Shown here piece after piece: positions 11,218 through 64,000 of a stretch of 64,000 bases of DNA (positions within the stretch are counted from its first letter, which is position 1; the number at the start of each line of letters is the position of its first letter). Source of the DNA: an uncultured Thermoleophilia bacterium (GTDB lineage Bacteria > Actinomycetota > Thermoleophilia > Miltoncostaeales > Miltoncostaeaceae); the NCBI GenBank assembly GCA_963784365.1, contig CAWAQS010000006.1, forward strand, positions 1,296,930 to 1,360,929, in the 5' to 3' direction. The position numbers and the translations under genes were made by a program. Below the pieces are notes generated by a model, which had not been told where the DNA came from, ran no database searches, and worked only from the letters and a program-made list of their open reading frames with translations.

Positions 11218-12269
11218 GCGGCGCGTCCGAGGGCGGGGGGCTGGCGCCCCTCGAGATCATCCGGCTCACCGACGCGGGCGTCGAGATGCTCGATCAGACG
11301 CTGCTGCCCGGACGCGAGGCGGTGCTCGTCTGCGCGGACTGGCCGCAGGTGGTCAACGCGATCCGCCGCCTCTCGATCCGGGGCGCGCCCGCCCTCGGGA
11401 TCGCCGGGGCCATGGGCGTGGCGCTCGCGGCGGCGTCCGTGCGCGGCGACGACCCGGGCTCGGGGCGCGCGGAGATCGCCCGCGCGGCGGCGGGGCTGCG
11501 CGACGCCCGCCCCACGGCGGTCAACCTGGCCTGGGCGGTCAACGCGCAGATGCGCCGTGCCGACGCGCACCCGGGCCCGCCCGACGCCCTCGCGGAGGCG
11601 CTCGCCGACGCCGCCCGACGCCTCCACGAGGACGAGGTCGAGCGCTGCCGGCTCATCGGCGCCCACGCCCTCGCGCTGCTGGGGCGCGGCGCGCGCATCA
11701 TGACCCACTGCAACGCGGGCGCCCTGGCCACCGGCGGCTACGGCACGGCCCTCGGCGTCGTCCGGGCGGCGTACGCGGCGGACCCCTCGGTGCGCGTCGT
11801 GGTGCCGGAGACCCGCCCGCTGCTCCAGGGCTCGCGGCTGACCGCCTGGGAGCTCGACCGCGACGGCATCCCGCACACGCTGATCACCGACTCGATGGCG
11901 GCCTCGATGATGGCGGGCGGCGCCGTCTCGCACGTCGTCGTGGGGGCCGACCGGATCGCCGCCAACGGAGACGTCGCCAACAAGATCGGCACCTACGGCC
12001 TGGCCGTGCTGGCGCGCGAGCACGGGATCGACGTGATCGTGGCCGCCCCCACGAGCACCATCGACCTCTCGACGCCCACGGGCGCGAGCATCCCCATCGA
12101 GGAGCGCTCCGCCGACGAGGTCCGCGGCCTGTCGCTCTTCGGCGCCGCCGCGTCGGCCGCGACGACATCCGTCGCGAACCCGGCCTTCGACGTGACCCCG
12201 GCCCGCTTCGTCTCGGCCATCGTCACCGAGCGCGGGGTCCATCGCCCGCCGTACGAGCGTGTCCCTTGA
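11214..12269 (+). CDS. mtnA: S-methyl-5-thioribose-1-phosphate isomerase / eIF-2B-like
   Basis: Intact ORF with 'RGAPALGIAGAMGVALAA…ARPTAVNLAWAV…IMTHCNAGALATGGYGTALGV…GADRIAANGDVANKIGTY'. Confidence 0.8.
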   Translation: MSGASEGGGLAPLEIIRLTDAGVEMLDQTLLPGREAVLVCADWPQVVNAIRRLSIRGAPALGIAGAMGVALAAASVRGDDPGSGRAEIARAAAGLRDARPTAVNLAWAVNAQMRRADAHPGPPDALAEALADAARRLHEDEVERCRLIGAHALALLGRGARIMTHCNAGALATGGYGTALGVVRAAYAADPSVRVVVPETRPLLQGSRLTAWELDRDGIPHTLITDSMAASMMAGGAVSHVVVGADRIAANGDVANKIGTYGLAVLAREHGIDVIVAAPTSTIDLSTPTGASIPIEERSADEVRGLSLFGAAASAATTSVANPAFDVTPARFVSAIVTERGVHRPPYERVP

Positions 12270-12276
12270 CGCGTTG

Positions 12277-12401
12277 AGGCCGGCCTCTTGCGGGCCGGCC
12301 TGGACGCGGCAAATGGGCCCTGGCCGGGCCCATTTGCATTCGGTGGCCGCCTTTGGCGGCGACCTTGTACACCACGGGCCGGGTTTCCCCGGCCCGTGGT
12401 G
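12277..12401. repeat. Cluster of four perfect GC-rich hairpins in the mtnA-comF intergenic region
   Basis: 12277-12301 AGGCCGGCC/GGCCGGCCT, 12311-12335 AAATGGGCCC/GGGCCCATTT, 12347-12360 GCCGCC/GGCGGC, 12371-12401 ACCACGGGCCGGG/CCCGGCCCGTGGT (13-bp stem). Confidence 0.6.
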
Positions 12402-12498
12402 TCTCGTCGCCATCGGCGACATCGGGGCCACGACCGGCCTGCGCGCGTCTCGGCACGATGTCGGCGCCGATCCGCCACGACGCGACCGGGAGGCTGGG

Positions 12499-13184
12499 GT
12501 GGTGCCCCTCGGTGTCCTGCTCGACGTCCTGCTGCCGCCGGCGTGCGCGGCCTGCGGGCTGCCCGGCCGGCCGGCGTGCGACGCGTGTCTCGCGGCGCTC
12601 GCGCCTTTGCCTCCGCCGTGGTGCGCGCGGGTGCGGCATCCCGGTCCCGGTCGCCGTCGAGCGGTGCGCCGCGTGCCGGGGCCGAATCGCGGAGGCGCGC
12701 CAGGCCGTGGCCTACTCCGGGCCGGCGCCCGCCATGGTCGCGGCGCTCAAGGACGGGCGCCGGCGGGTGCTCGCCGAGGTGCTGGCGCGGGCGATCGCGG
12801 ACGCCGTGGCGGCCCCGCCGCTCGGGGCGGTGCTGGTGCCGGTGCCGCTGGGCCCGCGCCGCGGACGCTCCCGGGGCTTCAACCAGAGCCGGCTGATCGC
12901 CGTCGCCCTGGGACGCGTCTGGGGCCGTCCGGTCGCCGACGCGCTCGTGCGGTCCCGCGAGGGGCCCGACCAGCGCGGCGCCGGCGCCACCGCGCGCGCC
13001 CGCCAGGTGGCCGGGGCCTTCGCGCCCGTCCGGCCGCGACCCGGTTCCGGCCTGCGCCTGGCTCGTGGACGACGTCCACACGACCGGGGCGACCCTCGCC
13101 GACTGCGCGCGGGCCCTGCGCGCCGGCGGGGCGCGCCGGGTCGGCGCGGTCTGCTTCGCGCGGGTCGTGGAGCCCGCGCGATGA
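12499..13184 (+). CDS. comF: ComF-family protein (double zinc-ribbon + phosphoribosyltransferase domain), frameshifted
   Basis: 'CAACGLPGRPACDACLAAL' zinc ribbon and the C-terminal 'AWLVDDVHTTGATLADCARAL' PRTase motif. Confidence 0.7.
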
Positions 13185-13257
13185 GGCGACGGCCGTGGGT
13201 GATGTCGGGCTCCCGCGATAGCATCCGGGGACAGAGAAGCCACAGAAGGGGGCCACC

Positions 13258-13851
13258 GTGCAGCTCCAGGTCAAGGGCAAGGGAATGTCCGTCACCGACG
13301 CCCTCTTCAACCACGCGGAGCAGAAGTTCGAGAAGCTCACGCGCATCCTGCCGCCCTGGGACGAGGCGACCAGCGTCGAGCTCGAGCTCTCGGTCGAGCG
13401 CAACAAGAAGATCGAGCGCGATCAGATCGCCGAGGTCACCGTCCGCACCAAGGGGCCGGTGCTCCGGGTGCGCGAGAGCGCCGACGACATGTACGTGGCG
13501 ATCGATCAGGCCGCCCGCAAGCTCGAGCGCCAGGCGCGCCGCTACCGCGACCGGCGCAAGGACCACCACGCCCCGCCCATGGACGAGGTGCCCGAGCTGG
13601 TCGGCCAGCCGCCGCTCGAGCCCGTGCCCGCGGCCCTGTCGGCCGAGCCCGTCGCTCCGCCCGAGCCCACCCCGCGACTGGTCAAGAGCAAGAGCTTCGA
13701 GTTGAAGCCGATGTCGGCGGAGGAGGCGGCCCTCTACATGGACCTGGTCCACCACGACTTCTACGTCTTCCTCAACGAGGCCGACGGCCTCGTCAACGTG
13801 GTCTATCGCCGTCGCGACGGCGATTTCGGCCTCATCGCACCCGGGGTGTGA
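13258..13851 (+). CDS. hpf: Ribosome hibernation-promoting factor, long form
   Basis: 'MQLQVKGKGMSVTDALFNHAEQKFEKL…' and the C-terminal dimerisation domain 'EEAALYMDLVHHDFYVFLNEADGLVNVVYRRRDGDFGLI'. Confidence 0.9.
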   Translation: MQLQVKGKGMSVTDALFNHAEQKFEKLTRILPPWDEATSVELELSVERNKKIERDQIAEVTVRTKGPVLRVRESADDMYVAIDQAARKLERQARRYRDRRKDHHAPPMDEVPELVGQPPLEPVPAALSAEPVAPPEPTPRLVKSKSFELKPMSAEEAALYMDLVHHDFYVFLNEADGLVNVVYRRRDGDFGLIAPGV

Positions 13852-13944: not shown

Positions 13945-16558
<2,614 letters not shown>

Positions 16559-51810: not shown

Positions 51811-52822
51811 ATGAGCGACCCGAGCCTCGAACAGATCCAGGAGCAGGCCCTCGCCGCCGCGGCCGCGGCCGGCGACGCTCGCCGAGCTCGAGGCCGCCCG
51901 CGTCGCCCACACCGGCCGCCGGAGCCCGCTCGCCGAGATCCTGGCGGGGATCGGCAGCCTGCCGCCCGAGCGGCGCGGGGAGGTGGGCAAGTCCGCCAAC
52001 CTCGCGCGGCGCGCCGTCGAGGCGGCGCTGGCCGCGCGCACCGCGGAGCTCGAGGCCGAGGAGATGGGCGCGGCCCTCGAGCGGGACACGGCCGACGTCA
52101 CCCTCCCCGGCGATCCGCACCCGCTGGGGGCGCTGCACCCGATCACCCAGATCCGCCGCGAGATGGAGGACATCCTCCTGGGCCTGGGCTACGGCATCGC
52201 CGACGGGCCCGAGGTCGAGACCGAGTGGCACAACTTCACGGCGCTCAACACGCCCCCGGGGCACCCGGCCCGCTCGCCCAGCGACACGTTCTTCGTCGCG
52301 GGCCACCCGGACCGGATGCTGCGCACGCAGACCTCGCCGGTGCAGGTGCGCGCGATGGAGGACGCCCAGCCGCCGATCTACCTGATCGCGCCGGGCGCGG
52401 TCTACCGCCGCGACGACGTCGACGCCACGCACAGCCCGATGTTCCACCAGATGGAGGGCCTCGCGGTGGACGAGGGCCTCACGATGGCCCACCTCAAGGG
52501 CACGATGCTGCACTTCTTCCGCGAGCTGCTGGGCGCCGACCGGGAGATCCTCCTGCAGCCGCACTTCTTCCCGTTCACCGAGCCCTCGGTGGACGTGCAG
52601 GTGTCGTACATCGACAAGGCCGGCCGCTCCAGCTGGCTCGAGCTCGCCGGCGCCGGGATGGTCGACCCGAACGTGCTCGAGTACAGCGGCATCGACTCGG
52701 AGCGCTACACGGGCTTCGCCTTCGGCTGCGGCCTCGACCGGATCGCGATGATCCGCTTCGGCGTGCCCGACCTGCGGCTCTTCTTCGAGGGCGACCTGCG
52801 CTTCCTGGAGCAGTTCGCGTGA
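51811..52822 (+). CDS. pheS: Phenylalanine--tRNA ligase alpha subunit, frameshift near 51880
   Basis: 'HPITQIRREMEDILLGLGY', 'FTALNTPPGHPAR', 'LRTQTSPVQVR', 'GFAFGCGLDRIAMIRFGVPDLRLFFEGDLRFLEQF'. Confidence 0.85.
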
Positions 52823-55250
52823 GGGCGCCCCTGTCGTGGCTCGCCGACCACGTCGACCCCGGGCTGCCGGCCGATGAGCTCGCGCGGCGCGCTGTCGGGC
52901 AGCGGGACGCTGGTCGAGGCCGTCCACCACCTCGGCGTGCCGGACGCCAACGGCAACCTGCGGCACGTTCCGGGTGGGGCGGGTGCTGTCGGCCGAGCAG
53001 CACCCCAACGCCGACCGCCTGCGCGTGTGCGCGGTGGACCTGGGCGAGGCGGAGCCGGCCGGCATCGTCTGCGGGGCGCCGAACGTGGCCGCGGGCCAGA
53101 CCGTGGCGGTCGCGCTGCCGGGCGCCCTGCTTCCGGGCGCCGACCGGCCGCTCGACGGTGGCGAAGCTGCGCGGGGTCGAGAGCCGGGGGATGATCCTGT
53201 CGGCGACCGAGCTGGCCCTGGGCGACGACGCGGCGGGGATCATGGTGCTCCCGGACGGGATCGCCCCCGGGACGCCCCTCGCCGAGGTGCTGCCCCTGAG
53301 CGAGACCGTCCTCGAGCTGGAGATCACCTCCAACCGCCCCGACTGCCTGGCCGTGTGGGGCGTCGCGCGCGAGGTCCACGCCGTCACCGGGGCGCCGCTG
53401 ACGCCGCTCGACGAGTCCGAACCTCCGGTCGAGGGTGAGGGTTCGGTGGAGGACCACGCCTCGCTCGCAGATCGACGCCCCGGACCTCTGCCCGCGCTAC
53501 ATGGCCCGGGTCCTCACCGACGTCACCGTCGGCCCGTCCCCCGCCTGGCTGGCGCACCGCATCGAGGCCGCCGGGATGCGCGCGATCTCCAACGTCGTGG
53601 ACATCACCAACTACGTGATGCTCCTCACCGGGCAGCCGCTCCACGCCTTCGACCTCGACCGGCTCGCCGGCGGGCGGATCGTCGTGCGGCGGGCGGGCGA
53701 CGGCGAGTCGATCACCACGCTCGACGGGCAGGAGCGCACGCTCGACGGCTCGATGCTGGCGATCTGCGACGCGGAGCGCCCCGCGGTCATCGCCGGGATC
53801 TTCGGGGCCGAGTTCGCCGAGGTCTCGGCGGGCACGACCCGGGTCCTGCTCGAGGCGGCCACCTTCGACGGCCCCACCATCCTCAACACCTCCCTCGCCC
53901 TGGGCCTGCGCAGCGAGTCGAGCGGCCGCTTCGAGAAGGGCCTGCCGACCCGCCTGCCGCCCCGGGCCATGGCGATCGCCAGCCGGCTGCTGGTGGAGCT
54001 CTGCGGGGCGCGGCTCGTCCCCGGGACGCTCGACGTCCACGCGCCGCTGCCCGAGCCCGCGACGCTCTCGGTGCGGAGCGAGCGGATCGCCGCGCACGCT
54101 CGGCGTGGAGGTGCCGGCCGAGGAGTCGGCCGCGATCCTCGCCCGCCTGGGCTGCGAGGTGGAGGTGCTCGTGGACGGGGTCACGGCCGTGATCCCCTTC
54201 GAGCGGGCCTCCGACCTCACCCGCGAGATCGACCTCGTCGAGGAGGTCGGTCGGATCCGCGGCCTGAACGACATCCCGGCCGTGCTCCCGCGGATCGCCG
54301 GCAACGGCCGCCTCACGCCCTCGCAGGCGCGCGAGCGCCGCCTCGCGCGGCTCGCGGCCGACCTCGGGCTCTCGGAGGCCATCACCTACCGCCAGGTGCC
54401 CGAGTCGGACCTCGACGCGCTGCGGATCGCCGGCGACGATCCCGCGGCGCGCGCTGGTGCGCATGGCCCACCCGATGAGCGCCGAGATGGCCGTGATGCG
54501 CCGCTCGATGCTGCCGGGCCTGCTGCGGGCCGTCGCCCGCAACCAGCACCACCAGCGCACCGACGGCGGCCTGTTCGAGATCGGGCGCACCTACGCGCCC
54601 CGGCCCGACGGCCAGGCCGACGAGCGCCGCTTCCTGGCGGCGCGTGCGCTTCGGCCGCGACGGCGCCGACGGCGGCTGGCGCGACGCGCCCCGCCCCGTG
54701 GACGTCTACACCGCGACCGGCCTGGCGGCGACCCTGGCGCGCTCGGCGGGCGTGCGGGTGGAGCCGCGGCCCAACGCGGCCCCCTACTTCCACCCGGTCC
54801 GCCAGGCCCGCATGCTCGCCGGCGAGGACGTCATCGGCTGGGCCGCGGAGATGCACCCGCTCGTGCTGCGGAACTTCGAGGTGGCCGGCCCGGTGGCCGC
54901 GGTCGTCCTCGACCTCGACGCCCTCGATCGCGCCGTTCCGCCGCCCCGCGAGTACGAGGACCTCCTCACCGTGCCGGTCTCGCACCGGGACCTCGCGCTG
55001 GTGGTCACCGACGGCGTCGCGGCCGCCGACCTGGTGAGCGCGGCGCGCGCGGCCGGAGGCGCACCTGCTGCGCGAGGTCCACGTCTTCGACCGCTACGCG
55101 GGCGAGCAGGTGGGGGCGGGCCACGTGAGCCTCGCCCTGCGGCTGACGCTGGCCGACCCCGGCCGCACGCTGACCGACGACGAGATCGAGGCCGCGGTCG
55201 CCCGGGTGCGCGAGGCGCTCGCCGAGCGCGGAGCCCACCTGCGGGGATGA
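52819..55250 (+). CDS. pheT: Phenylalanine--tRNA ligase beta subunit, numerous frameshifts
   Basis: '[16 protein letters not shown]', '[23 protein letters not shown]', '[18 protein letters not shown]', B3/4 and FDX-ACB pieces across at least six frame segments. Ends '[14 protein letters not shown]'. Confidence 0.8.
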
Positions 55251-55262
55251 GAGACTGAGGGG

Positions 55263-56246
55263 ATGAGCCAGACCGTCCACGTCTTCGGCGCCGCCGGGTT
55301 CGCCGGCGCGCAGCTCGCCGCCCTGCTCGACCGGCACCCGCGCTTCTCGCTCGGCACCATCACGGCCCGCGGCGACGCGGGCAAGCGGCTGGTGGACGTG
55401 GCGCCCGAGTACCGCGTCGAGCAGCGGCTCGAGGCGCCCGACATCCAGGCCGTCGCCGCGGGCGACCTCGTCGCCGTCTGCTACCCGCACGCCCAGGCGG
55501 CGCTGATCGTGGCCGAGCTGATCGACCGGGGCGCCCGCGTGGTCGACGTGTCGGCGGACCACCGGCTGCACGACGCCGCCCTCTACCCGGCGGTCTACGG
55601 CTACATGCACCCCCGGCCGGACCTGCTGGCCGAGGCGGTCTACGGCCTGCCCGAGAGCCGCCGCGACATGATCCGCACCGCCCGCCTGGTGGCCAACCCC
55701 GGCTGCTTCCCCGAGGCGAGCATCCTCGGCCTGCTGCCCCTGGCCGGGTCGATCGCCGACGTGGTCATCGACGCCAAGAGCGGCGTCAGCGGGGCGGGGC
55801 GGACGCCGACGACGGCGGTGCACTTCTCGACGGTCACCGACAGCGTCAACCCGTACAAGGTGTACACCCACCGCCACTGGCCCGAGATCGAGCAGGAGCT
55901 GGCGGTGGAGGTGACCTTCACGCCGCACCTGGTGCCGGTCGATCGCGGCCTGATGGCCACGTGCTACGCCCGCCTCACGGAGGGCGCGCCGCACGCCGAC
56001 GACCTGCGCGCCACCTACCACGCCTTCTACGCCGACCACCCCTTCGTGGAGGTCGTCGAGAGCCCGCCCGGCATGCGCGCCGTGCAGCGGACCAACTTCG
56101 CCCAGGTCTGCCCGATGGCCGATCCGCGCGGCGGCCGCGTGACGGTGTTCAGCGTGATCGACAACCTGGGCAAGGGGGCGGCGGGCCAGGCCCTCCAGAA
56201 CCTCAACCTGATGGCCGGACTGCCCGAGACCGACGGGCTCCTGTGA
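55263..56246 (+). CDS. argC: N-acetyl-gamma-glutamyl-phosphate reductase
   Basis: Intact 327 aa: 'VHVFGAAGFAGAQLAALL', 'VANPGCFPEASILGLLPL', 'IDAKSGVSGAGR'. Confidence 0.9.
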   Translation: MSQTVHVFGAAGFAGAQLAALLDRHPRFSLGTITARGDAGKRLVDVAPEYRVEQRLEAPDIQAVAAGDLVAVCYPHAQAALIVAELIDRGARVVDVSADHRLHDAALYPAVYGYMHPRPDLLAEAVYGLPESRRDMIRTARLVANPGCFPEASILGLLPLAGSIADVVIDAKSGVSGAGRTPTTAVHFSTVTDSVNPYKVYTHRHWPEIEQELAVEVTFTPHLVPVDRGLMATCYARLTEGAPHADDLRATYHAFYADHPFVEVVESPPGMRAVQRTNFAQVCPMADPRGGRVTVFSVIDNLGKGAAGQALQNLNLMAGLPETDGLL

Positions 56247-57464
56247 GCCTGGCGCCGGTCCTGCGCGGCGACTGGCTGCGGGTGCCGGAGGGGCTCGAGC
56301 CGATCGCGGGGGGCGCCGTCACCTCGCCCCCCGGCTTCCGGGCGGCGGGCGTCTCGTGCGGGCTGAAGGCCTCGGGGGCGCTCGACCTGGGGATCCTCGT
56401 GGCCCCGGGCCCGGTGTCCTCCGCCCTGGTGGACACCGCGAGCGCCCTGCCGTCGGCCCCGGTGATCCGCAACCGCGGGCTGGACCGCTCGGCGCTGCGC
56501 GCGGTGGTGGTCAACGCGGGCGCGGCCAACGCGGCCACCGGCTCGCCGGGGCTCGAGGACGCCCACCAGATGGCCGCGCGCGCCGCGGAGCGCCTGGGGA
56601 TCGACGCGGCCGCCGTCGCGGTGTGCAGCACCGGCACGATCGGCGACCGGATCGACCTCGGCCTCACCGACCGGGGCATCGACGCGGCGGCCGCGGCCCT
56701 CTCGGAGACGGGCGGCGCCGACTTCGGCCGGGCCATCTGCACCACCGGATCGCGCGCCCAAGGGCGGCGCGTTCCGGCTGCGCCTCGGCGCGGGCGAGGT
56801 GACGATCGGCGCGGCGGCCAAGGGCGCGGGGATGATCCGCCCGGACATGGCCACGATGCTCGCCTACGTCACCACCGACGCCGTCGTCGCCCCCGAGGAT
56901 CTGCAGGCCATCACGGCGGCTGCGGCCGCCGACTCGTTCAACCGCATCAGCGTGGACGCCCAGATGAGCCCCTCGGACACGCTCCTGGTGATGGCCGGGG
57001 CGGGCGGGGCGCCGCTCCACGGCGCCGACCGCGACCGCTTCGCCGCGGCGCTCACCGCGGTCTGCCGCTGGCTGGCGATCCAGATGGTCAAGGACGGCGA
57101 GGGGTCCGAGCACGCGGTGCGGGTGGTCGTGAGCGGCGCCCGCGACGACGCCGAGGCCGAGGCGGTGGCGCGGGCGGTGGGCGAGTCGTCGCTCGTGAAG
57201 ACCGCCGTCAACGGACGCGACCCCAACTGGGGGCGCGTCTCCCAGGCGGTCGGCCAGGCCCTGGCCGGCGCGGTCGACCCGGTGATGGAGCCGGTCGTCT
57301 CGGTGGACGGCGTCCCCTACGCGGCGGCCGAGGCGGCCGAGGTGCTGGCGCGCGAGGAGTACGACCTCGAGGTCGCCCTCGGCCGGGGCGACTCCGGCGC
57401 GGAGCTGTGGGTCTCGGACCTCGGCCACGCGTACGTGACCATCAACGCGGAGTACCACACCTAG
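56243..57464 (+). CDS. argJ: Bifunctional glutamate N-acetyltransferase/amino-acid acetyltransferase, frameshift near 56750
   Basis: 'GFRAAGVSCGLKASGALDLGILV', 'GAAAKGAGMIRPDMATMLAYVTTDA' (autoproteolytic ATML site), 'GRDPNWGRV'. Confidence 0.85.
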
Positions 57465-58172
57465 CCCGGCCCGAGGCCCCGGGCCACCGCCGATCCGAGC
57501 GCCAGCGCGGCGGCGGCGCTGGTCGCGATGCCGACCACCGCGCGGCGGGGGCCCGCGTCCACGACCACCAGCTGGTGGCCCGCGCCGGGGTAGACGGCCA
57601 CCGGGTGCCCGGTGACGCGGGTGCGCAGGCGGGCCGGCCGGCCGATGAGGCCGACGATGTCGCGGGGAATGGGGGGCACGGCGACGCCCGGCCGGGCCGC
57701 GATGCCGATCAGGACGCCGATCGTCGTCGCCGCGCGTGGCCTGGGCGATCTCCACGGCGTACCCCGACGCCGGCCCGCTCACGCCGTTCAGCACGGCGTT
57801 GCGCGTGCGGAACACCAGCGACTCGCGGGCCGTCCCGATCGGGACGGGGGCGACGGTGTAGCCCGGGACCCGGGCCGGCAGCGTGGGGACGCCGCTCGCC
57901 GGGGTGGCGGGGGTGGTCGCGCTGGCTCCCGGGCGCGGCGCACCGGCGGTCGGTGCGGGCGTGGTGCCGGCGGCGACGGCGACCGCCAGGACCGCGAGGA
58001 GGACGGCGAGTGCCGCCGACACGACGAGGGGGAACCGGCGGCTGTCCACGTGCGGATGCTGGGGGCCCGGCGGGCGGGCGGCAAGCGGGCGTTGGCGGTC
58101 TCCGCCCGGGATCCCGACGCCCAGCGCGTTCGCGCTCCCGGCGCGCTCGCCCCTTCGGGTGATCCGCCTCAC
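57461..58172 (-). CDS. Hypothetical membrane-anchored protein (TM + Ala/Pro/Thr linker + small C-terminal beta domain), frameshifted
   Basis: 'FPLVVSAALAVLLAVLAVAVAAG' TM, 'TTPAPTAGAPRPGASATTPATPASG' linker, C-terminus '…HPVAVYPGAGHQLVVVDAGPRR'. No confident family assignment. Confidence 0.35.
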
Positions 58173-58185
58173 CCGAACGCGCGAG

Positions 58186-59504
58186 CTACAAGAGCGTCTG
58201 GCTGATCAGGAAGGCGTTGAGCGCGACGATCAGGACCACGACCACCGATGCGATCGCGGTGGTCGCGCGGCGGTTCACCAGCCCGCCCATCAGCTCGCGG
58301 TTGCGGCAGAAGCCGAGCAGCGGGATCAGCGCGAAGGGGATCCCGAACGACAGGACCACCTGGCTGAGGATGAGGGCGTCCGTGGGGTTGACGCCGATCG
58401 CCAGCACGATCAGGGCCGGAGCCATCGTCAGGCCGCGCCGCAGGAAGAGCGGGATGCGGCGGTCGATGAAGCCCTGCATGACCACCTGGCCGGCCAGCGT
58501 CCCCACCGACGACGACGAGAGGCCGGACGCCAGGAGCGCGATGCCGAAGGCGATCTGGGCGTTGGAGCCCACGAGCTCGCCCAGCAGGTCGAAGACCTGG
58601 TCGATGTCGCTCACGCCGGTCAGGCCGCGGCTGTGGAAGACGGCCGCCGCCATGATCAGCATCGACATGTTGATCAGCCCGGCGATGGTCATCGCGATGA
58701 TCACGTCGGTCCGCTCGAAGCGGAAGATCCTGCGCCGCTCCTCCTCCGTGCGCCCCATCACGCGCCGCTGGGTGAGGGCCGAGTGCAGGTAGATGACGTG
58801 CGGCATCACGGTCGCGCCGAGGATGCCGGTGGCCAGCAGGACGCTCTCGGTGCCGTCGAACTGCGGCACCAGGAGGCCGTGGGCGATGCCCGACGGCGCC
58901 GGGTGGGTGAAGAAGAACTGGACCGCGAAGCCCACCAGGATCACGCCCACGAAGGCCGCGATGGCGATCTCGAGCGCCCGCACGCCGCGCGACTGGAGGG
59001 CGAGGATCCCGAACGAGAAGACGCCCGTCAGCACCCCGGCCCAGAAGAGCGGGATGCCGAAGAGCAGGTAGAAGCCGAGCGCCGCGCCGATGAACTCGGC
59101 CAGGTCGGTGGCCATGGCGATCAGCTCGGCCTGGACCCAGAGGGCGCGCGAGACCGGCTTCGGGTAGCGCGCCCGGCAGACCTCCGGGAGGTTCATGCCG
59201 GTGGCGATCCCGAGCTTGGCGGACATCGTCTGGATCAGCATCGCCATGAGGTTCGACGCCAGGATCACCCACAGCAGCATGTAGCCGAACTGGGATCCCG
59301 CGGCCACGTTGGTCGCGAAGTTCCCCGGATCCACGTAGGCGACCGCGGCGATGAACGCCGGGCCGAGGAAGGGCAGCACCGCCCGGAATCCGCGCGCACC
59401 GCCGCCCAGGGAGCGCGCGGCGGCGTCGGCGACGCGGGCCTCGCCGGGGAGGACGCCCTCGAGGAGGTCGTCGGGCGCGGCCGCGGGGGGCGCGGTCGTC
59501 ATCG
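58186..59504 (-). CDS. mntH: Nramp-family divalent metal (Mn2+/Fe2+) transporter
   Basis: Intact from 'MTTAPPAAAPDDLL…'. 'FLGPAFIAAVAYVDPGNFATNVAAGSQFGYMLLWVIL' (Nramp DPGN motif) and 'MPHVIYLHSAL' (conserved TM6 His). Confidence 0.85.
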
Positions 59505-59594
59505 GCGGGTCGTGGGTGCGTGGGGTGGGAGATGGCGGCACCGTGGGGGATACGCGACCGGCCGGCACGTGGATCAGTCGCGTGGTCGAGTTGC

Positions 59595-59612
59595 AGCTAG
59601 TCATGACTAACT
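59595..59612. promoter_or_regulatory. 18-bp near-perfect palindrome AGCTAGTCATGACTAACT (16/18 symmetric) in the mntH / multicopper-oxidase divergent promoter
   Basis: Core TAGTCA|TGACTA is perfectly symmetric. It is 14 bp upstream of the MCO GTG and about 90 bp upstream of the mntH ATG. Candidate metalloregulator operator. Confidence 0.35.
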
Positions 59613-59625
59613 GTAGAAGATAGCC

Positions 59626-60632
59626 GTGGCGAAAAGTGGATTGACCCGGCGGCAGGTCCTGGTCGGCGCGGCCCCCATCGTGGCGGCGCTGCCGATGGCG
59701 GGGCTGGCGACGGTGCCCTCGCTCGGGGGCGCGTCGGCCGCCGCCGCGCCGGAGCCGGCCCACGCCGGCCACGGCCACGCGGCGATGTTCGGCGCCGGAG
59801 GCCCCGGCGCCCGGGCGGCCCGAACGACCTGGACGCCCTGCTGATCCCGCCGCCGGCGCTGCCCCACCAGCCCGGGCGGGTGCGCCGCTACTCCATCGCC
59901 GCGCTGGACCGCGAGGTGGAGGTCGCCCCGGGGGTCTTCTTCCCGGCCTGGACCTACAACGGCACGGTGCCGGGCCCGGTGATCCGGGCCACCCAGGACG
60001 ACATCCTGGAGGTGGAGTTCACCAACGCCGGCTCCCACCCCCACACGATCCACTTCCACGGCATCCACCCGTCCGGGATGGACGGCGTCTTCGAGATCGT
60101 GGAGCCCGGCGGCACCTTCACGTACCGCTTCCCGGCCATGCCGTGGGGCATGCAGCTCTACCACTGCCACGCCACGCCCCTGAAGAAGCACATCCACAAG
60201 GGGCTCTACGGGGCCTTCATCATCGACCCCCCGACGCCGCGGGCCCCGGCCCAGGAGCTGGTGATGGTGATGAACGGCTTCGACACCGACGGCGACGGCG
60301 AGAACAACTTCTACACGGTCAACGGGAAGGCGTTCTACTACGCCAAGTACCCGATCCGCGTGAGGCGCTCGGAGACGGTCCGCATCTACCTGGCGAACCT
60401 CACCGAGTTCGACCTGATCAACTCGTTCCACCTGCACGGCGAGTTCTTCCGCTACTACCGCACCGGCAGCACGGACCACTTCGAGTACACCGACACGGTC
60501 ATGCAGTGCCAGGGCGAGCGCGGGATCGTCGAGATCGACTTCCACCACGCGGGCCGCTTCATGTTCCACGCCCACCAGTCCGAGTTCGCCGACCTGGGGT
60601 GGATGGGCTTCTTCGAGGTCGAGGACGCGTGA
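59626..60632 (+). CDS. Tat-secreted small multicopper oxidase/cupredoxin-domain protein, frameshift near 59830
   Basis: Twin-arginine signal 'LTRRQVLVGAAPIVAALPMAGLA' (frame of 59626..59844). Then copper ligands 'HTIHFHGIH', 'YHCHATP', 'HLHGEF', 'FMFHAHQSEF' in the frame of 59880..60632. Confidence 0.65.
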
Positions 60633-61846
60633 GCACCGAGCCGGTCCGGCGCGTCGCGCGGCGGTCCGTGGGGCGTGAGGGTCCTGGCGCTCGTCCCGAT
60701 CGTCCTGCTCGTGGCGATCGCGGCGGCCTTCGTCGCCTCGGGCAGCTCCATCACGGGTCTGATCGGCGGCAACCCGCCCCCCGCCGACACGCTCGAGATG
60801 CGCCGGGTGGAGTTCCACGACGGCCAGATCCGGCTGCTGGTGCGCAACCCCCAGCCCGAGGACATCACGATCGCCGTGGTCACGGTGGACGACGCGGTCG
60901 TGCCCGTTCACGGTCGACGGGCCCACCACCCTCGGCCGCCTGCGCTCGACCCACATCGACATCCCGTTCACCTGGGTCGCGGGCGACCCCTACCTCCTGG
61001 GCGTGACGAGCTCGACGGGCATCCAGTCGACGATCGCCGTGCCCGCGGCCGTCGAGACGCCGTCGGCGAGCGGCGCGGCGTTCGGGGGGTACGCGCTGAT
61101 CGGCCTCCTGGTGGGCGTGGTCCCGGTCGCGCTGGGGATGCTCTGGCTGCCGTCGCTGCGCCGCGCGGACCCGCGCTGGCTCGCGGCCTTCATGGCCCTC
61201 ACGGGCGGCCTGCTGACCTTCCTGGCCGTGGACGCCCTCGCCGAGGCCCTCGAGCTGCAGGGCGCCCTGCCCGGCGCGCTGGGGGGGCCGGGGCTGGTGC
61301 TGGCCGGGCGTCGCGGCCAGCTACCTCGGCCTGGCCTGGGTCTCCCACCGCCTCTCCCGGCGCGAGCCGGGCGCCGCGGCCGGGGCGCCGCTCGCCGGCC
61401 TCGCCCTCGCGACGATGGTCGCGATCGGCATCGGCATCCACAACCTCAGCGAGGGCCTGGCGATCGGCTCGTCGTTCGCCGTCGGGCAGCTCGCGCTCGG
61501 GACCTTCCTGGTCGTGGGCTTCATGGTCCACAACGTCACCGAGGGGCTCGGCATCGTCGCCCCCGTGGCGGACGGCCGGCGCGTGAGCGCGGTCCGGCTC
61601 GGCGTGCTGGCGCTGGTGGCCGGCGCCCCGACGATCGTCGGGGCCTGGATCGGGGGCTTCCTCACCAACGAGATCCTGGTCGTCCTGTTCTTCTCGCTCG
61701 CGGTCGGCGCGGCGCTGCAGGTGGTCGTCGAGGTCGGCCGCTACATCGCCCGGCGCGCGCCGGGCGGGCTCGGCTCCGGCTGGGTGGTCGGCGGCTTCCT
61801 CGCCGGGATCGCCGTCATGTACCTGACGGGCCTGCTGGCGGGTTAG
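60632..61846 (+). CDS. ZIP-family metal (Zn/Fe) transporter with N-terminal extracytoplasmic domain, frameshifted
   Basis: 'MVAIGIGIHNLSEGLAIGSSFAVGQLALGTFLVVGFMVHNVTEGLGIVAP' (two HNxxEG motifs of ZIP TM4/TM5) and C-terminal TMs. Pieces lie in three frames. Confidence 0.65.
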
Positions 61847-61871
61847 GGCAGCTCACCGCTCCCGAGGGCGC

Positions 61872-62806
61872 TCACGCGTGCTCCTCGCCGCGGCCGGGCT
61901 CGGTGATCGTGTGGAGCCGGCGGTCGCTCTCGTGCTCCACCTGCAGCGTCGTGTGATGGATGTGGAAGTCGTGCTCCAGCATCTCGGCCACCTCGCGGCG
62001 GCGCGCGTGGCAGTCCTCGCCGGGGCCGACCAGGACGTGCGCGGACAGCGCGGGGAAGCCCGAGGTGATGGTCCAGACGTGGAGGTCGTGCACCTCGCGC
62101 ACCCCCGGCACGGCGGCCATGCTGCGCCCGACCTCGTCCGCGTCGATGCCCTCGGGGGAGGCCTCGAGCAGGACCGCGATCGACTCGCGCAGGACCCGCC
62201 AGGCGCCGATCAGCACCAGGACCCCGATCGCCAGCGCGGCGACGGGATCGGCGGCCCACCACCCGAAGGCCATGGCCAGCAGCGCCGCCACCACGACCCC
62301 GGCCGAGCCGAGCAGGTCGGCCAGCACGTGGAAGAGCGCCGCGCGGACGTTGAGGCTCTCGCCTCCGGACCGCCAGAGGATCCCCGCCGCCGACCAGGTT
62401 GACCACCAGCCCGACCAGCCCGATCACCAGGGTGGGCACGGCGTCGAAGTGGGGCGGGTCGGGCAGCCGCTGCAGCGCCTCGATGATGATCCAGATGCCC
62501 ACCGCGACCAGGGCCACGCCGTTCGCCAGCGCGGCGAGGATCTCGGCGCGCCGCCAGCCGAAGCTCATCCGCGCCGTGGGCGGACGGCGCGCGAGCCAGA
62601 CGGCGCCGAGCGCCAGCGCGAGGGACGCGGCATCCGAGAGCATGTGGCCGGCGTCGGCGAGCAGGGCGACGCTCCCGGCGAGGAGGCCGCCCACGACCTC
62701 GAGCACGGCGAAGCCCGGCGGTGATCGCGAGGACGATCCCGAGCGCGCGCGCGTCGGCGGCGCGTCCGCCGGCTCCGTGGTCGTGTGAGTGGCCGATGCC
62801 CGGCAC
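61872..62806 (-). CDS. Cation diffusion facilitator (CzcD-like Co/Zn/Cd efflux), frameshifted
   Basis: His-rich N-terminus 'MPGIGHSHDHGAGG', 'LLADAGHMLSDAASLALAL', 'HVLADLLGSAGVVVAALL', C-terminal domain 'REVHDLHVWTITSGFPALSAHVLV'. Confidence 0.7.
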
Positions 62807-62900
62807 GCTCGCAGGTCGCGGCGGACGCTGTCCGGCAGTTGACGGACTTCGTCAGCCCGATCCCCATCCGCGGCCCGCCGTATGTCAGCATCACCGGCCG

Positions 62901-63798
62901 ATGGCCGACGACACCACCACCCGGCGGGCGCACGCCGACCCGCCGCCCGACCTCGAGCCCCGCGTGGGCGTGCTCCTCGAGGCGCTCCCGTACATCCGGG
63001 AGTTCGCCGGGGAGACGATCGTGATCAAGTACGGCGGCGCGGCGATGACGACGCCCGGAGCTGAAGGCCTCCTTCGCGCGCGACGTGGCGCTGCTGAAGC
63101 TGGTGGGCATGAACCCGGTGGTCGTGCACGGCGGCGGCCCGGACATCTCCCGCTACTCGGACCGCCTCGGCCTCGAGGTGCGCTTCGTCCAGGGGCTGCG
63201 GGTGACCGACGCGCCCACCATGGAGCTCGTGAAGATGGTGCTGGTGGGCAAGATCAACAAGGAGATCGTGGCCCAGCTGCACGTGGCCGGAGCGCCCGCC
63301 GTGGGCCTGGCGGGCGACGACGGCGGGCTGATCGAGGCCGAGAAGGCGCAGAGCCCCGACGCCGACCTCGGCTTCGTGGGCCAGGTGGCCAGCATCGACC
63401 CGTGGGTGCTCGAGAGCCTCGCCGAGTTCGTCCCGGTGGTCGCGTCCGTCGGGGTCGACGCCGACGGCCAGAGCTACAACATCAACGCCGACACGGTGGC
63501 CGGCCGGCTGGCGGCGGCGCTGGGCGCGCGCAAGGTCATCTTCCTCACCGACGTCGACGGCATCCTCCGCGACGTGTCCGACCCGGCCAGCCTGATCAGC
63601 GAGTGCCGGGCGCGCGACGTGCGCGGGCTGATCGAGTCGGGCGCCGTCGGGGCGGGGATGATCCCCAAGCTCGGCGCCGTGGTGGACGCGCTGGAGGGCG
63701 GGGTGGGCGCCGCCCACATCGTCGACGGCCGGGTGCCCCACTCCGTGCTGATCGAGATCTTCACCGAGACCGGCATCGGGACCAAGGTGACGCAGTGA
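62901..63798 (+). CDS. argB: Acetylglutamate kinase, frameshift near 63050
   Basis: 'ETIVIKYGGAAM', 'NPVVVHGGGPDI', 'GFVGQVASIDP', 'NINADTVAGRLAAALGARKVIFLTDVDG'. Confidence 0.8.
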
Positions 63799-64000
63799 TC
63801 GACGAGGTGCTCGTCCAGCGGGAGGCCGCGGCCCTGATGCCGACCTACCGGCGCCAGCCGGTCGCGTTCGTGCGCGGCGAGGGGGCCGCCCTCTTCGACG
63901 CCGAGGACCGCCGCTACGTGGACTGCATGGCGGGCATCTCGATGAACAACGTCGGCCACTGCCACCCGGCGGTCGTGCGGGCGATCACCGAGCAGGCCGC
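63795..64000 (+). CDS. argD: Acetylornithine aminotransferase (5' part, runs off the window)
   Basis: The GTG overlaps the argB stop. 'LMPTYRRQPVAFVRGEGAALFDAEDRRYVDCMAGISMNNVGHCHPAVVRAITEQA'. Confidence 0.8.
   Translation, partial: MIDEVLVQREAAALMPTYRRQPVAFVRGEGAALFDAEDRRYVDCMAGISMNNVGHCHPAVVRAITEQA

Follow-up and report, generated by a model that had tools for sequence, protein, structure and literature searches.

The only description of a multicopper oxidase (MCO) gene linked to a ZIP permease gene that we found in the searchable literature is from ammonia-oxidising archaea, in which MCO1 and the adjacent zinc/iron permease show modest induction under copper limitation, and for which a Fet3p-like role in copper uptake has been proposed but not validated (PMC7785015, citing Kerou et al. 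2016). In Deinococcus radiodurans, the DtxR-family manganese sensor DR2539 recognises the operator ATTTTAGTCGCGCCTAAAAT in the mntH promoter, as established by crystal structure and electrophoretic mobility shift assay (10.1101/2024.02.12.579695). Here we describe a locus that recalls both systems. It lies in a stretch of 64,000 nucleotides, hereafter the window, from an uncultured Thermoleophilia bacterium of the Miltoncostaeaceae (contig CAWAQS010000006.1, assembly GCA_963784365.1), where genes for an Nramp transporter (mntH), an MCO, a ZIP-like transporter and a cation diffusion facilitator (CDF) occupy both strands between argJ and argB. In order, orientation and the start/stop overlaps of argC with argJ and of argB with argD, the flanking genes are the same as in the argCJBD(F)R cluster of Actinomycetota, but argJ and argB, contiguous in most relatives, are here 5.4 kb apart, so that the immediate adjacency of argCJBD is lost. 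On balance we favour the view that this block is vertically inherited, and that its core is a manganese-limitation uptake unit under an operator of the DR2539/MntR type.

The predicted operator and a candidate regulator

At about 75% G+C the window renders raw lists of open reading frames (ORFs) useless; genes were instead called from GC content at third codon positions (GC3) and three-frame translations, and Pfam and NCBIfam searches were made on the proteins after joining frames. The metal genes, and the elements in the intergenic region between mntH and MCO, are:

58186-59502, minus strand: mntH, intact, 438 residues (Pfam Nramp, 1.3e-124)
59596-59611, palindrome with no strand assigned: predicted MntR/DR2539-type operator CTAGTCATGACTAA, with its core TAGTCATGACTA at 59598-59609
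59614-59619, plus strand: -10-like hexamer TAGAAG, 6 nt before the MCO GTG, from a profile of 68 aligned sites
59626-60632, plus strand: MCO, a two-domain multicopper oxidase with a Tat signal (Cu-oxidase_3 and Cu-oxidase_2)
60629-61846, plus strand: ZIP-like transporter, its GTG start overlapping the MCO stop (GTGA)
61872-62806, minus strand: CDF exporter (Cation_efflux and ZT_dimer)

The original prediction, made by a model from the letters of the window, had placed metal genes between argC-argJ and argB-argD, and both their content and their coordinates are borne out by Pfam after frame repair and by NCBIfam. Four of the five intervening genes it counted (mntH, MCO, ZIP and CDF) are solid, whereas the fifth, a hypothetical ORF, is not conserved.

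The core TAGTCATGACTA is the only TAG-N6-CTA sequence in the 64 kb window, and the centre of the predicted operator lies some 22 nt before the MCO start codon. For comparison 80 metagenome loci carrying the MCO were gathered, in addition to relatives of the window (loci and genomes are designated here by L numbers). Among the 78 loci with enough upstream sequence, 61 have an exact TAG-N6-CTA between about -90 and +20 relative to the MCO start, mostly between -45 and +20, where about 0.02 would be expected per 240-bp zone; of its 74 occurrences in 773 kb, only a handful fall outside this zone around the MCO start, and the loci lacking an exact box, among those printed, carry near-variants of it. 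The consensus TTTAGnC(A/G)TGnCTAAA is often centred on the MCO start codon itself, which supplies the central ATG/GTG, and with such start-codon-centred boxes a TAnnnT-like hexamer occupies -12 to -7. At the same spacing as the window hexamer stand TATAAC in L001 and L084, and TAGAAC in L167. This arrangement suggests that the MCO transcript is leaderless and that the operator lies on its promoter. The window box and ATTTTAGTCGCGCCTAAAAT have the same TTAG-N6-CTAA architecture, with one arm mismatch in the window; some boxes, such as TTTAGTCGCGTCTAAA in L119, differ little from the DR2539 operator, and the intergenic region between regulator and MCO in Rubrobacter holds TTTTAGCCAAAACTAAAA. A manganese riboswitch was not found by an Rfam scan of 54000-64000 (E<=1), which returned only a sub-threshold chance match to a snoRNA.

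The palindrome also precedes an importer of a classical kind. In three relatives of the window the interval between argJ and argB holds the following:

L021 11400-15344, L003 9200-12830 and L002 4405-4623: TroABCD-like ABC importer (substrate-binding protein, two permeases, ATPase)

A TAG-N6-CTA box is present upstream of this importer at 15384 in L021, about 40 bp from the first gene, and at 12856 in L003. One of the permeases has a C-terminal extension of about 130 residues that is winged-helix-like, with a weak match to HTH_IclR only.

Reading the upstream sequences of loci without an exact box led to a candidate regulator. A divergent gene whose product begins MQDYVKEIYKL encodes a 219-residue DtxR-family protein with Fe_dep_repress, Fe_dep_repr_C and FeoA domains, and 45 of the 80 metagenome loci have a DtxR-family gene adjoining MCO-ZIP. 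The closest solved homologues of the regulator are, in order, DR2539 (3e-46), PDB 5ZR4 (a metal-dependent regulator that we take to be MntR of M. tuberculosis), ScaR, and then IdeR/DtxR, and its best NCBIfam model is an MntR equivalog, at a score below the cut-off. The alignment places Asp at the positions of both Met10 and Cys102 of IdeR, and Asp at both positions is the manganese-selective pattern in the DtxR/MntR family.

Transporters and multicopper oxidase

The mntH product is predicted to be an Nramp-family Mn2+/Fe2+ importer. Pfam PF01566 covers positions 1-356 of its 357-position profile, the score against NCBIfam NF001923 (567.5 bits, cut-off 430) places the protein in the MntH subfamily, and the translation shows AYVDPGNFATN and ATVMPHVIYLHS, which contain the DPGN and MPH motifs of the Nramp metal site in transmembrane helices (TM) 1 and 6. 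The CDF protein matches PF01545 (6.6e-47) and PF16916 (1.4e-13) and has a His-rich N-terminus. Its L081 orthologue belongs to the superfamily by TIGR01297 (270.5 bits, cut-off 82) and falls below the cut-offs of the substrate equivalogs, at 229 bits for ZitB (cut-off 408) and 82 bits for MntE (cut-off 500); we regard it as a predicted ZitB/CzcD-like exporter.

The MCO has two cupredoxin domains (Cu-oxidase_3, 3.4e-25; Cu-oxidase_2, 1.5e-23), is 92% identical to its intact L081 orthologue, and has as its closest solved structures 3GDC and 7RAB (E about 2e-96, aligned over 248 residues). The copper motifs HPHTIHFHG, HCH...KHI, HLHG and FHAH are present and align with those of 3GDC; by motif, the four HxH (one of them in HCH) presumably form the trinuclear cluster, and the Cys of HCH together with His the type 1 (T1) site, in which we read Leu at the axial position from the 3GDC alignment. 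The N-terminus, VAKSGLTRRQVLVGAAP, carries a twin-arginine signal (TRRQVL), and the proteins of L001, L006 and L081 retain TRRQ(V/M)L. Assignment as a NirK nitrite reductase was rejected, as TIGR02376 gives 99.8 bits (cut-off 296) and domain 2 has HxH pairs, which NirK is not known to carry. We found no biochemistry of this MCO subfamily in the searchable literature, and exact look-up of the 250-residue MCO fragment of the window (P0052) found no contig on record.

The permease is a more distant family member. It scores 27.8-28.6 bits against Pfam Zip (gathering threshold 35.1), with only the TM4-TM5 region aligning, yet it matches the BbZIP structures 5TSA/7Z6M at E about 5e-6 over 275 residues (108-382), and its TM4 and TM5 carry HNxxEG motifs (IHNLSEGLAIG and VHNVTEGLG) that scarcely vary among 51 homologues. 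RefSeq names the orthologues 'ZIP family metal transporter'. An extra N-terminal transmembrane helix and an extracytoplasmic domain of about 110 residues, with no conserved clusters of His, Cys or Met, precede the ZIP-like region. We therefore file the protein as ZIP-like, in what would be a divergent ZIP subfamily with an extra N-terminal domain.

These family assignments bear on whether the locus might instead serve zinc homeostasis under Zur, with a ZupT-like importer, a zinc-exporting CDF and the ABC system being ZnuABC. The best equivalogs for the ZIP and CDF proteins are indeed ZupT and ZitB, both below their cut-offs, and AztB and ZnuB are among the matches of the ABC permease. However, MntH exceeds the cut-off of a subfamily of Mn/Fe transporters, the regulators adjacent to MCO-ZIP are of the DtxR/MntR and not the Fur/Zur type, no Zur homologue was found in the window by tblastn, and the motif has the architecture of the DR2539 operator; Zur boxes are AT-rich palindromes of the Fur type, unlike the conserved motif here. 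We consider a zinc locus very improbable.

The MCO-ZIP pair as a widespread cassette

The oxidase and permease genes are not separated in the loci we examined. ZIP directly follows MCO in all 70 loci with at least 400 bp of downstream sequence, and in the window and L081 the stop and start codons of the two genes overlap. None of the 80 metagenome loci has arg genes beside the pair, mntH is nearby in about ten, and Gaiellaceae carry MCO-ZIP in an unrelated context. When plasmids were searched by tblastn, the breakdowns by organism were nearly alike for MCO and ZIP, and the genes are adjacent in the records common to both. A DtxR-type 'metal-dependent transcriptional regulator' flanks the pair in Arthrobacter FB24, Rubrobacter marinus, Rhodococcus opacus B4 and Deinococcus sp. 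QL22, and on Sulfitobacter and Sinorhizobium plasmids a gene named mntR by PGAP is divergent from it. On a Peribacillus plasmid MCO-ZIP is followed by tatA; upstream of this operon, at 5680-5715 of L166, is AGTTTACTTAAGGAAACTT, which may resemble the MntR box of B. subtilis. These distributions characterise MCO-ZIP as a cassette that is mobile on a long timescale. In bacteria, we found no description of an MntR-linked MCO-ZIP operon in the searchable literature.

We put forward tentatively, and with less confidence than the uptake function proposed for the window, a wider reading in which the box and MCO-ZIP would form an uncharacterised, manganese-repressed, oxidase-coupled uptake system, the MCO being the obligate partner of the ZIP protein. 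The system would have spread horizontally across phyla (Actinomycetota, Bacillota, Deinococcota, Pseudomonadota, Cyanobacteriota and the haloarchaea) and become fixed in Miltoncostaeaceae, where in the arg cluster it would be accompanied by mntH and interchangeable with the TroABCD-like importer. The MCO1-permease pair of ammonia-oxidising archaea may be a relative of it.

Proposed function

In the mechanism we propose for the window, a DtxR-family repressor encoded in trans would bind the box when Mn(II), possibly also Fe(II), is replete, and would shut off the MCO-ZIP operon and probably mntH. On metal limitation MCO-ZIP and mntH would be expressed and divalent metal imported, with the Tat-exported oxidase and the N-terminally extended ZIP-like permease made from one transcript. 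The adjacent ZitB-like CDF would export excess cation under separate control, and argB-argD would be transcribed from a promoter of their own. By analogy, the oxidase could be coupled to the permease in the manner of Fet3p/Ftr1p, or could clear the cell surface of competing Fe2+ or Cu+. Repression and the metal to which it responds are things we infer, as is the ZIP substrate. Repression is preferred to activation because a single palindrome sits on the -10 element and start or in the spacer, and an uptake unit is indicated because a classical importer has this box before it too and because MCO-ZIP is linked to mntH. The block had been viewed as a possible metal-stress or Mn-oxidation module, and this is disfavoured by the same features: a single DR2539/MntR-type operator across the predicted promoter, over the -10 element and transcription start or the spacer, implies repression by metal, which fits uptake and not stress induction, and the same box stands before a Mn/Zn ABC importer.

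Several points weigh against the proposal. Neither the 64 kb window nor the arg loci of relatives yielded the regulator gene: tblastn searches with manually entered IdeR, B. subtilis MntR and Zur sequences, and with the DtxR-type regulators of the metagenome loci, gave nothing in the window, in keeping with the earlier statement that the block encodes no metalloregulator, and a regulator would here have to act in trans from elsewhere in the genome. The window box has C for T at its first arm position and lies about 95 bp from the mntH start, which makes control of mntH less certain than that of MCO; in L006 a further box stands closer to mntH. The promoters were assigned by pattern alone, a generic scan having found none. 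The CDF is ZitB-like, suggesting zinc, rather than MntE-like, and on a cyanobacterial plasmid MCO-ZIP adjoins a two-component system and not MntR. The weak point of the proposal is how an oxidase would benefit the import of divalent cations. MntR proteins are also capable of activating efflux genes, although they do so from multiple upstream sites (PMC11882963); DR2539 responds to Fe(II) besides Mn(II) (PMC3327659); and the similar archaeal pair responds modestly to copper limitation (PMC7785015).

The last two of these observations are equally points in favour of a different substrate, with MCO-ZIP serving the acquisition of copper, or iron, in the manner of Fet3p/Ftr1p, and the palindrome belonging to a DtxR member that senses iron or another metal, so that manganese would not be the primary concern. 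The linkage of MCO to ZIP and its modest up-regulation in Nitrososphaera viennensis (PMC7785015) fit this, as do the Leu at the T1 axial position both here and in archaeal MCO1, and the presence of CopC and a second MCO near the pair on Rhodococcus and Arthrobacter plasmids. We nevertheless judge it unlikely, as the regulator clusters with manganese sensors and has Asp at both selectivity positions, an mntR of the E. coli type neighbours the pair in alphaproteobacteria, the same box is found at the TroABCD-like importer, and mntH is linked to the pair here and in about ten other loci. Uptake under manganese limitation remains for us the better account of the core of the block.

Insertion into the arginine cluster

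The genes and the spacer that flank the metal genes are:

55263-56246, plus strand: argC (N-acetyl-gamma-glutamyl-phosphate reductase), intact, directly after pheT, GC3 0.99
56243-57464, plus strand: argJ (Pfam ArgJ, 3.5e-108 after repair), with a GTGA start/stop overlap with argC
57461-58172, minus strand: variable spacer with a doubtful ORF, formerly described as a membrane-anchored hypothetical protein
62901-63798, plus strand: argB (acetylglutamate kinase; Pfam AA_kinase, 2.2e-45)
63795-64000, plus strand: 5' end of argD, which runs off the window, 88% identical to L081 ArgD (Pfam Aminotran_3)

ArgC of the window is 87% identical to that of L081, which matches Pfam Semialdhyde_dh. The ORF at 57461-58172 has no Pfam or NCBIfam match, is missing from the closest relative L167, where the gap between argJ and mntH is 20 bp, and in L081 is a partial remnant (54% identity over 97 residues); its sole coding support is a minus-strand GC3 of 0.92-0.97, and we treat this 0.7 kb, doubtful as a gene, as a variable spacer.

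A scan with ArgJ, taking one genome per species, identified the nearest relatives as metagenome-assembled genomes of uncultured Miltoncostaeaceae and Thermoleophilia at 59-78% identity. Closer relatives, L081 (about 84% nucleotide identity) and L167 (about 87%), were reached through protein look-ups, and the synteny of relatives was mapped by tblastn. L167, L081 and L001 have the order of the window, i.e. argCJ, mntH in reverse, MCO and ZIP forward, CDF in reverse, then argBD, and L006 has the same order minus CDF, so that the mntH-MCO-ZIP core is present at the junction in four other Miltoncostaeaceae-like species, three of them with CDF. In L021, L003 and L002 (partly seen) the junction is filled by the TroABCD-like Mn/Zn ABC importer and a CDF, while in L032, which counts among the contiguous genomes, the interval is only 0.4 kb. 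In some 20 more distant genomes (e.g. L004, L005, L007, L014, L016-L019, L023, L025 and L026) argJ and argB are contiguous.

A neighbour-joining tree of ArgC, ArgJ and ArgB places all carriers of metal genes together with L032 in a nine-species clade with 100% bootstrap support, eight of the nine having metal genes between argJ and argB. Window, L167 and L081 group at 100%, as do L006 and L002, which are therefore sisters with different cassettes; the tree leaves the placement of L032 relative to L003 unresolved. The idea that a conserved operon had been interrupted by an insertion thus holds, since contiguity, seen in the outgroups, is ancestral and the block is confined to a fully supported clade.

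The age of the insertion is a different matter. The original prediction had raised the horizontal acquisition of a module for metal stress or Mn oxidation, and a rival view built on it is that of a genomic island that arrived recently; in support of this MCO-ZIP does occur in unrelated contexts and on conjugative plasmids of many phyla, some homologues are labelled 'manganese oxidase' by IMG, and the sisters L006 and L002 differ in cassette content. The common gene order, with the core at the same junction in four other species, speaks instead for an inherited block, and the block is as diverged as its flanks: nucleotide identity to L167 is 86.5% in the upstream flank and 87.4% across the block and the argB-argD stretch, and to L081 84.4% and 83.8%, respectively. 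Codon usage is likewise indistinguishable. GC3 is about 0.94-0.99 in the block, with 0.98-0.99 for mntH, MCO, ZIP and CDF, like that of the arg genes, and the distance in relative synonymous codon usage to the window background (0.39-0.80 for mntH, MCO and ZIP) falls inside the spread shown by comparably sized background ORFs; where mntH and MCO are lower in overall GC, this is due to their first and second codon positions. Direct or inverted repeats flanking the block amount to GC-rich chance matches only, ARAGORN finds no tRNA gene in the window, and no integrase, transposase or recombinase was noticed among the ORFs read, no dedicated search having been made. Of the features expected of a genomic island, then, flanking repeats, a tRNA target and deviating composition are lacking, and a recombinase went unnoticed without a search aimed at it. 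The observations that the original prediction had named as refuting it, a shared gene order in close relatives and codon usage like that of the flanks, have thus largely been made. A recent arrival we hold to be improbable.

The sequence comparisons point to an old, lineage-specific insertion that would have been inherited vertically since the ancestor of a Miltoncostaeaceae-like subclade, vertical inheritance following from divergence and composition that match the flanks and from the lack of repeats, tRNA genes or any recombinase noticed. The insertion appears to have been succeeded by at least one cassette exchange and one loss of CDF.

Other inserts and interruptions were seen around the arg genes. 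Unrelated inserts occupy the argJ-argB junction in other Thermoleophilia (L008 11203-12367, L009 7001-9956, L011 9129-10150 and L015 11206-14438), and by eye contain truncated-haemoglobin-like, small membrane protein, PIN-like, PstS-like and periplasmic-binding-like genes. L001 has at 11227-13293 an extra cupin (163 residues), a MarR-family regulator (166 residues) and a low-complexity ORF between argJ and mntH. Short ORFs in L032 (11339-11551) and L001 (13127-13342) share a similar peptide stretch, (V/I)(D/T)LVL(T/S)GALR, possibly a relic or else a small element conserved close to the junction. Beyond the point corresponding to the end of the window, L081 (15412-21008) and L167 (15353-21011) have genes of the ABC/MacB-FtsX type and for a HATPase_c_2 (anti-sigma-like) protein between argD and argG, with neither argF nor argR there, a second interruption of the arg cluster.

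Frameshifts

As the window is written, argJ, MCO, ZIP (three times), CDF (twice) and argB are broken in frame, and only mntH and argC are intact. Frameshifts were placed as follows:

near 56746-56748: argJ
near 59790-59825: MCO
about 60650, 60885 and 61270: ZIP, three frameshifts
near 63050: argB

Taken at face value, the broken frames of MCO, ZIP, CDF and the hypothetical ORF would describe a decaying set of pseudogenes in a non-functional locus. But argJ and argB are broken likewise, and the essential pheT (52819-55244) has five frame changes in 2.4 kb relative to its intact orthologue; by our tally the rate inside the block, about 1.2-1.3 per kb, is the same outside it. Every frame fragment retains a GC3 near 0.98 and so gives no sign of relaxed drift, and the L081 orthologues of the block genes are all intact. 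Split high-scoring segment pairs or truncated gene calls are found at other positions in several related assemblies with contig_ names and MFD/ERZ labels, and in none of those with NODE_ or k141_ names. We find decay of the block hardly credible, and because pheT is broken at the same rate we interpret the frameshifts as indel errors of assembly and not as marks of pseudogenes, the errors probably originating in long reads. Methylation-linked basecalling was tried as their source; of 11 junctions, 7 have a GATC no more than about 20 nt away where about 2.5-3.3 would be expected, at a GATC density of 9.4 per kb, and the association was set aside as too weak. Single-base indels are pervasive throughout 52800-64000, such that ORF-based annotation of this contig would fragment most of its genes.

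A candidate argB promoter

Two elements were identified in the divergent region between CDF and argB:

62840-62854, no strand assigned: inverted repeat TGACGGACTTCGTCA, conserved in L081 and partly in L001
62881-62891, plus strand: element T(A/G)TGTCAGCAT, about 10 nt before the argB start, a candidate argB promoter or -10 element

The repeat may be a putative operator for whatever controls the CDF gene. The second element is shared by the window with L081, L001 and L021; L003 carries a variant of it, as does the insert-free L032, and TANNNT-like hexamers stand at a similar position before argB in more distant genomes in which the operon is contiguous. From this it would seem that argB had a promoter of its own before the insertion, which would explain the tolerance of the junction for inserted genes; in Thermoleophilia the argJ-argB junction has the appearance of a general insertion hot spot or tolerated boundary. 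A generic scan for sigma-70 promoters and terminators returned no promoters and one chance-level terminator. In L006, which lacks CDF, 27 bp (14911-14938) separate the ZIP stop from the start of argB, both genes being on one strand, and argB-argD could there be read through from the metal-regulated MCO-ZIP operon.

Significance and comparison with known systems

A split arg operon in an uncultured lineage is, alone, a modest synteny variant assembled from known families and of limited importance, though it identifies the argJ-argB boundary as a tolerated insertion point at which metal-uptake cassettes were exchanged. Its main value is that it exposes a conserved and probably manganese-repressed MCO-ZIP cassette of uncharacterised mechanism, tied in most cases to an MntR-type regulator or to its operator. 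Close homologues of the oxidase have solved structures (3GDC, 7RAB), and the pair is carried on plasmids of culturable, tractable bacteria (Arthrobacter, Rhodococcus, Sinorhizobium, Deinococcus and Peribacillus); the link to manganese is thus a concrete and testable hypothesis for oxidase-permease pairs, with organisms in which to test it. The role of the archaeal pair has so far been speculative, and if the relationship proves true the hypothesis of archaeal 'copper uptake' may need revisiting.

In regulation the nearest known system is DR2539, the closest solved homologue of the regulators adjacent to MCO-ZIP, whose target is also an mntH gene (dr1709), and whose operator has the architecture seen here. 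It differs in that no regulator gene is present in the window, and in that the predicted site here would also serve an MCO-ZIP operon. Importers of the TroABCD/MntABC type (cluster A-I) occupy the same interval beside the same CDF in L021, L003 and L002, with the same palindrome upstream in L021 and L003, but are absent from the window.

The Fet3p-Ftr1p iron-uptake system of yeast and the bacterial systems of the EfeUOB type share with this locus the genetic coupling of an extracytoplasmic MCO to a membrane permease, and provide a working analogy for why the two genes are inseparable. The analogy is functional only, as the permease here is ZIP-like and belongs to a family other than Ftr1/OFeT, and since ZIP proteins carry divalent cations an oxidised product is not an obvious substrate.

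In gene content the closest counterparts are the trios of Arthrobacter FB24 plasmid 1 (ARTH_RS21360-21370) and its equivalents, which combine a metal-dependent regulator of the DtxR/MntR type with an MCO at about 56-63% identity and, immediately after it, a ZIP-like 'metal transporter'. Unlike the window they are plasmid-borne, encode their regulator in cis and have no arg operon and no adjacent mntH, Rubrobacter being the exception with Nramp fragments about 4 kb from the trio. The FB24 oxidase is probably the source of PDB 3GDC, because the window MCO matches it at a level comparable to 3GDC; our search of the literature located no functional study of such trios. The described pair that most resembles MCO-ZIP is that of Nitrososphaera viennensis (NVIE_000600/000590; Reyes et al. 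2020, PMC7785015), in which a two-domain MCO is directly linked to a ZIP permease as it is here, and in which the Leu reported at the T1 axial position of MCO1 is matched by the Leu that we read in the window MCO. The archaeal pair has been discussed for copper uptake with no link to MntR reported, whereas the pair here and in many bacteria has a box or adjacent regulator of the DR2539/MntR type and, in the window, mntH beside it.

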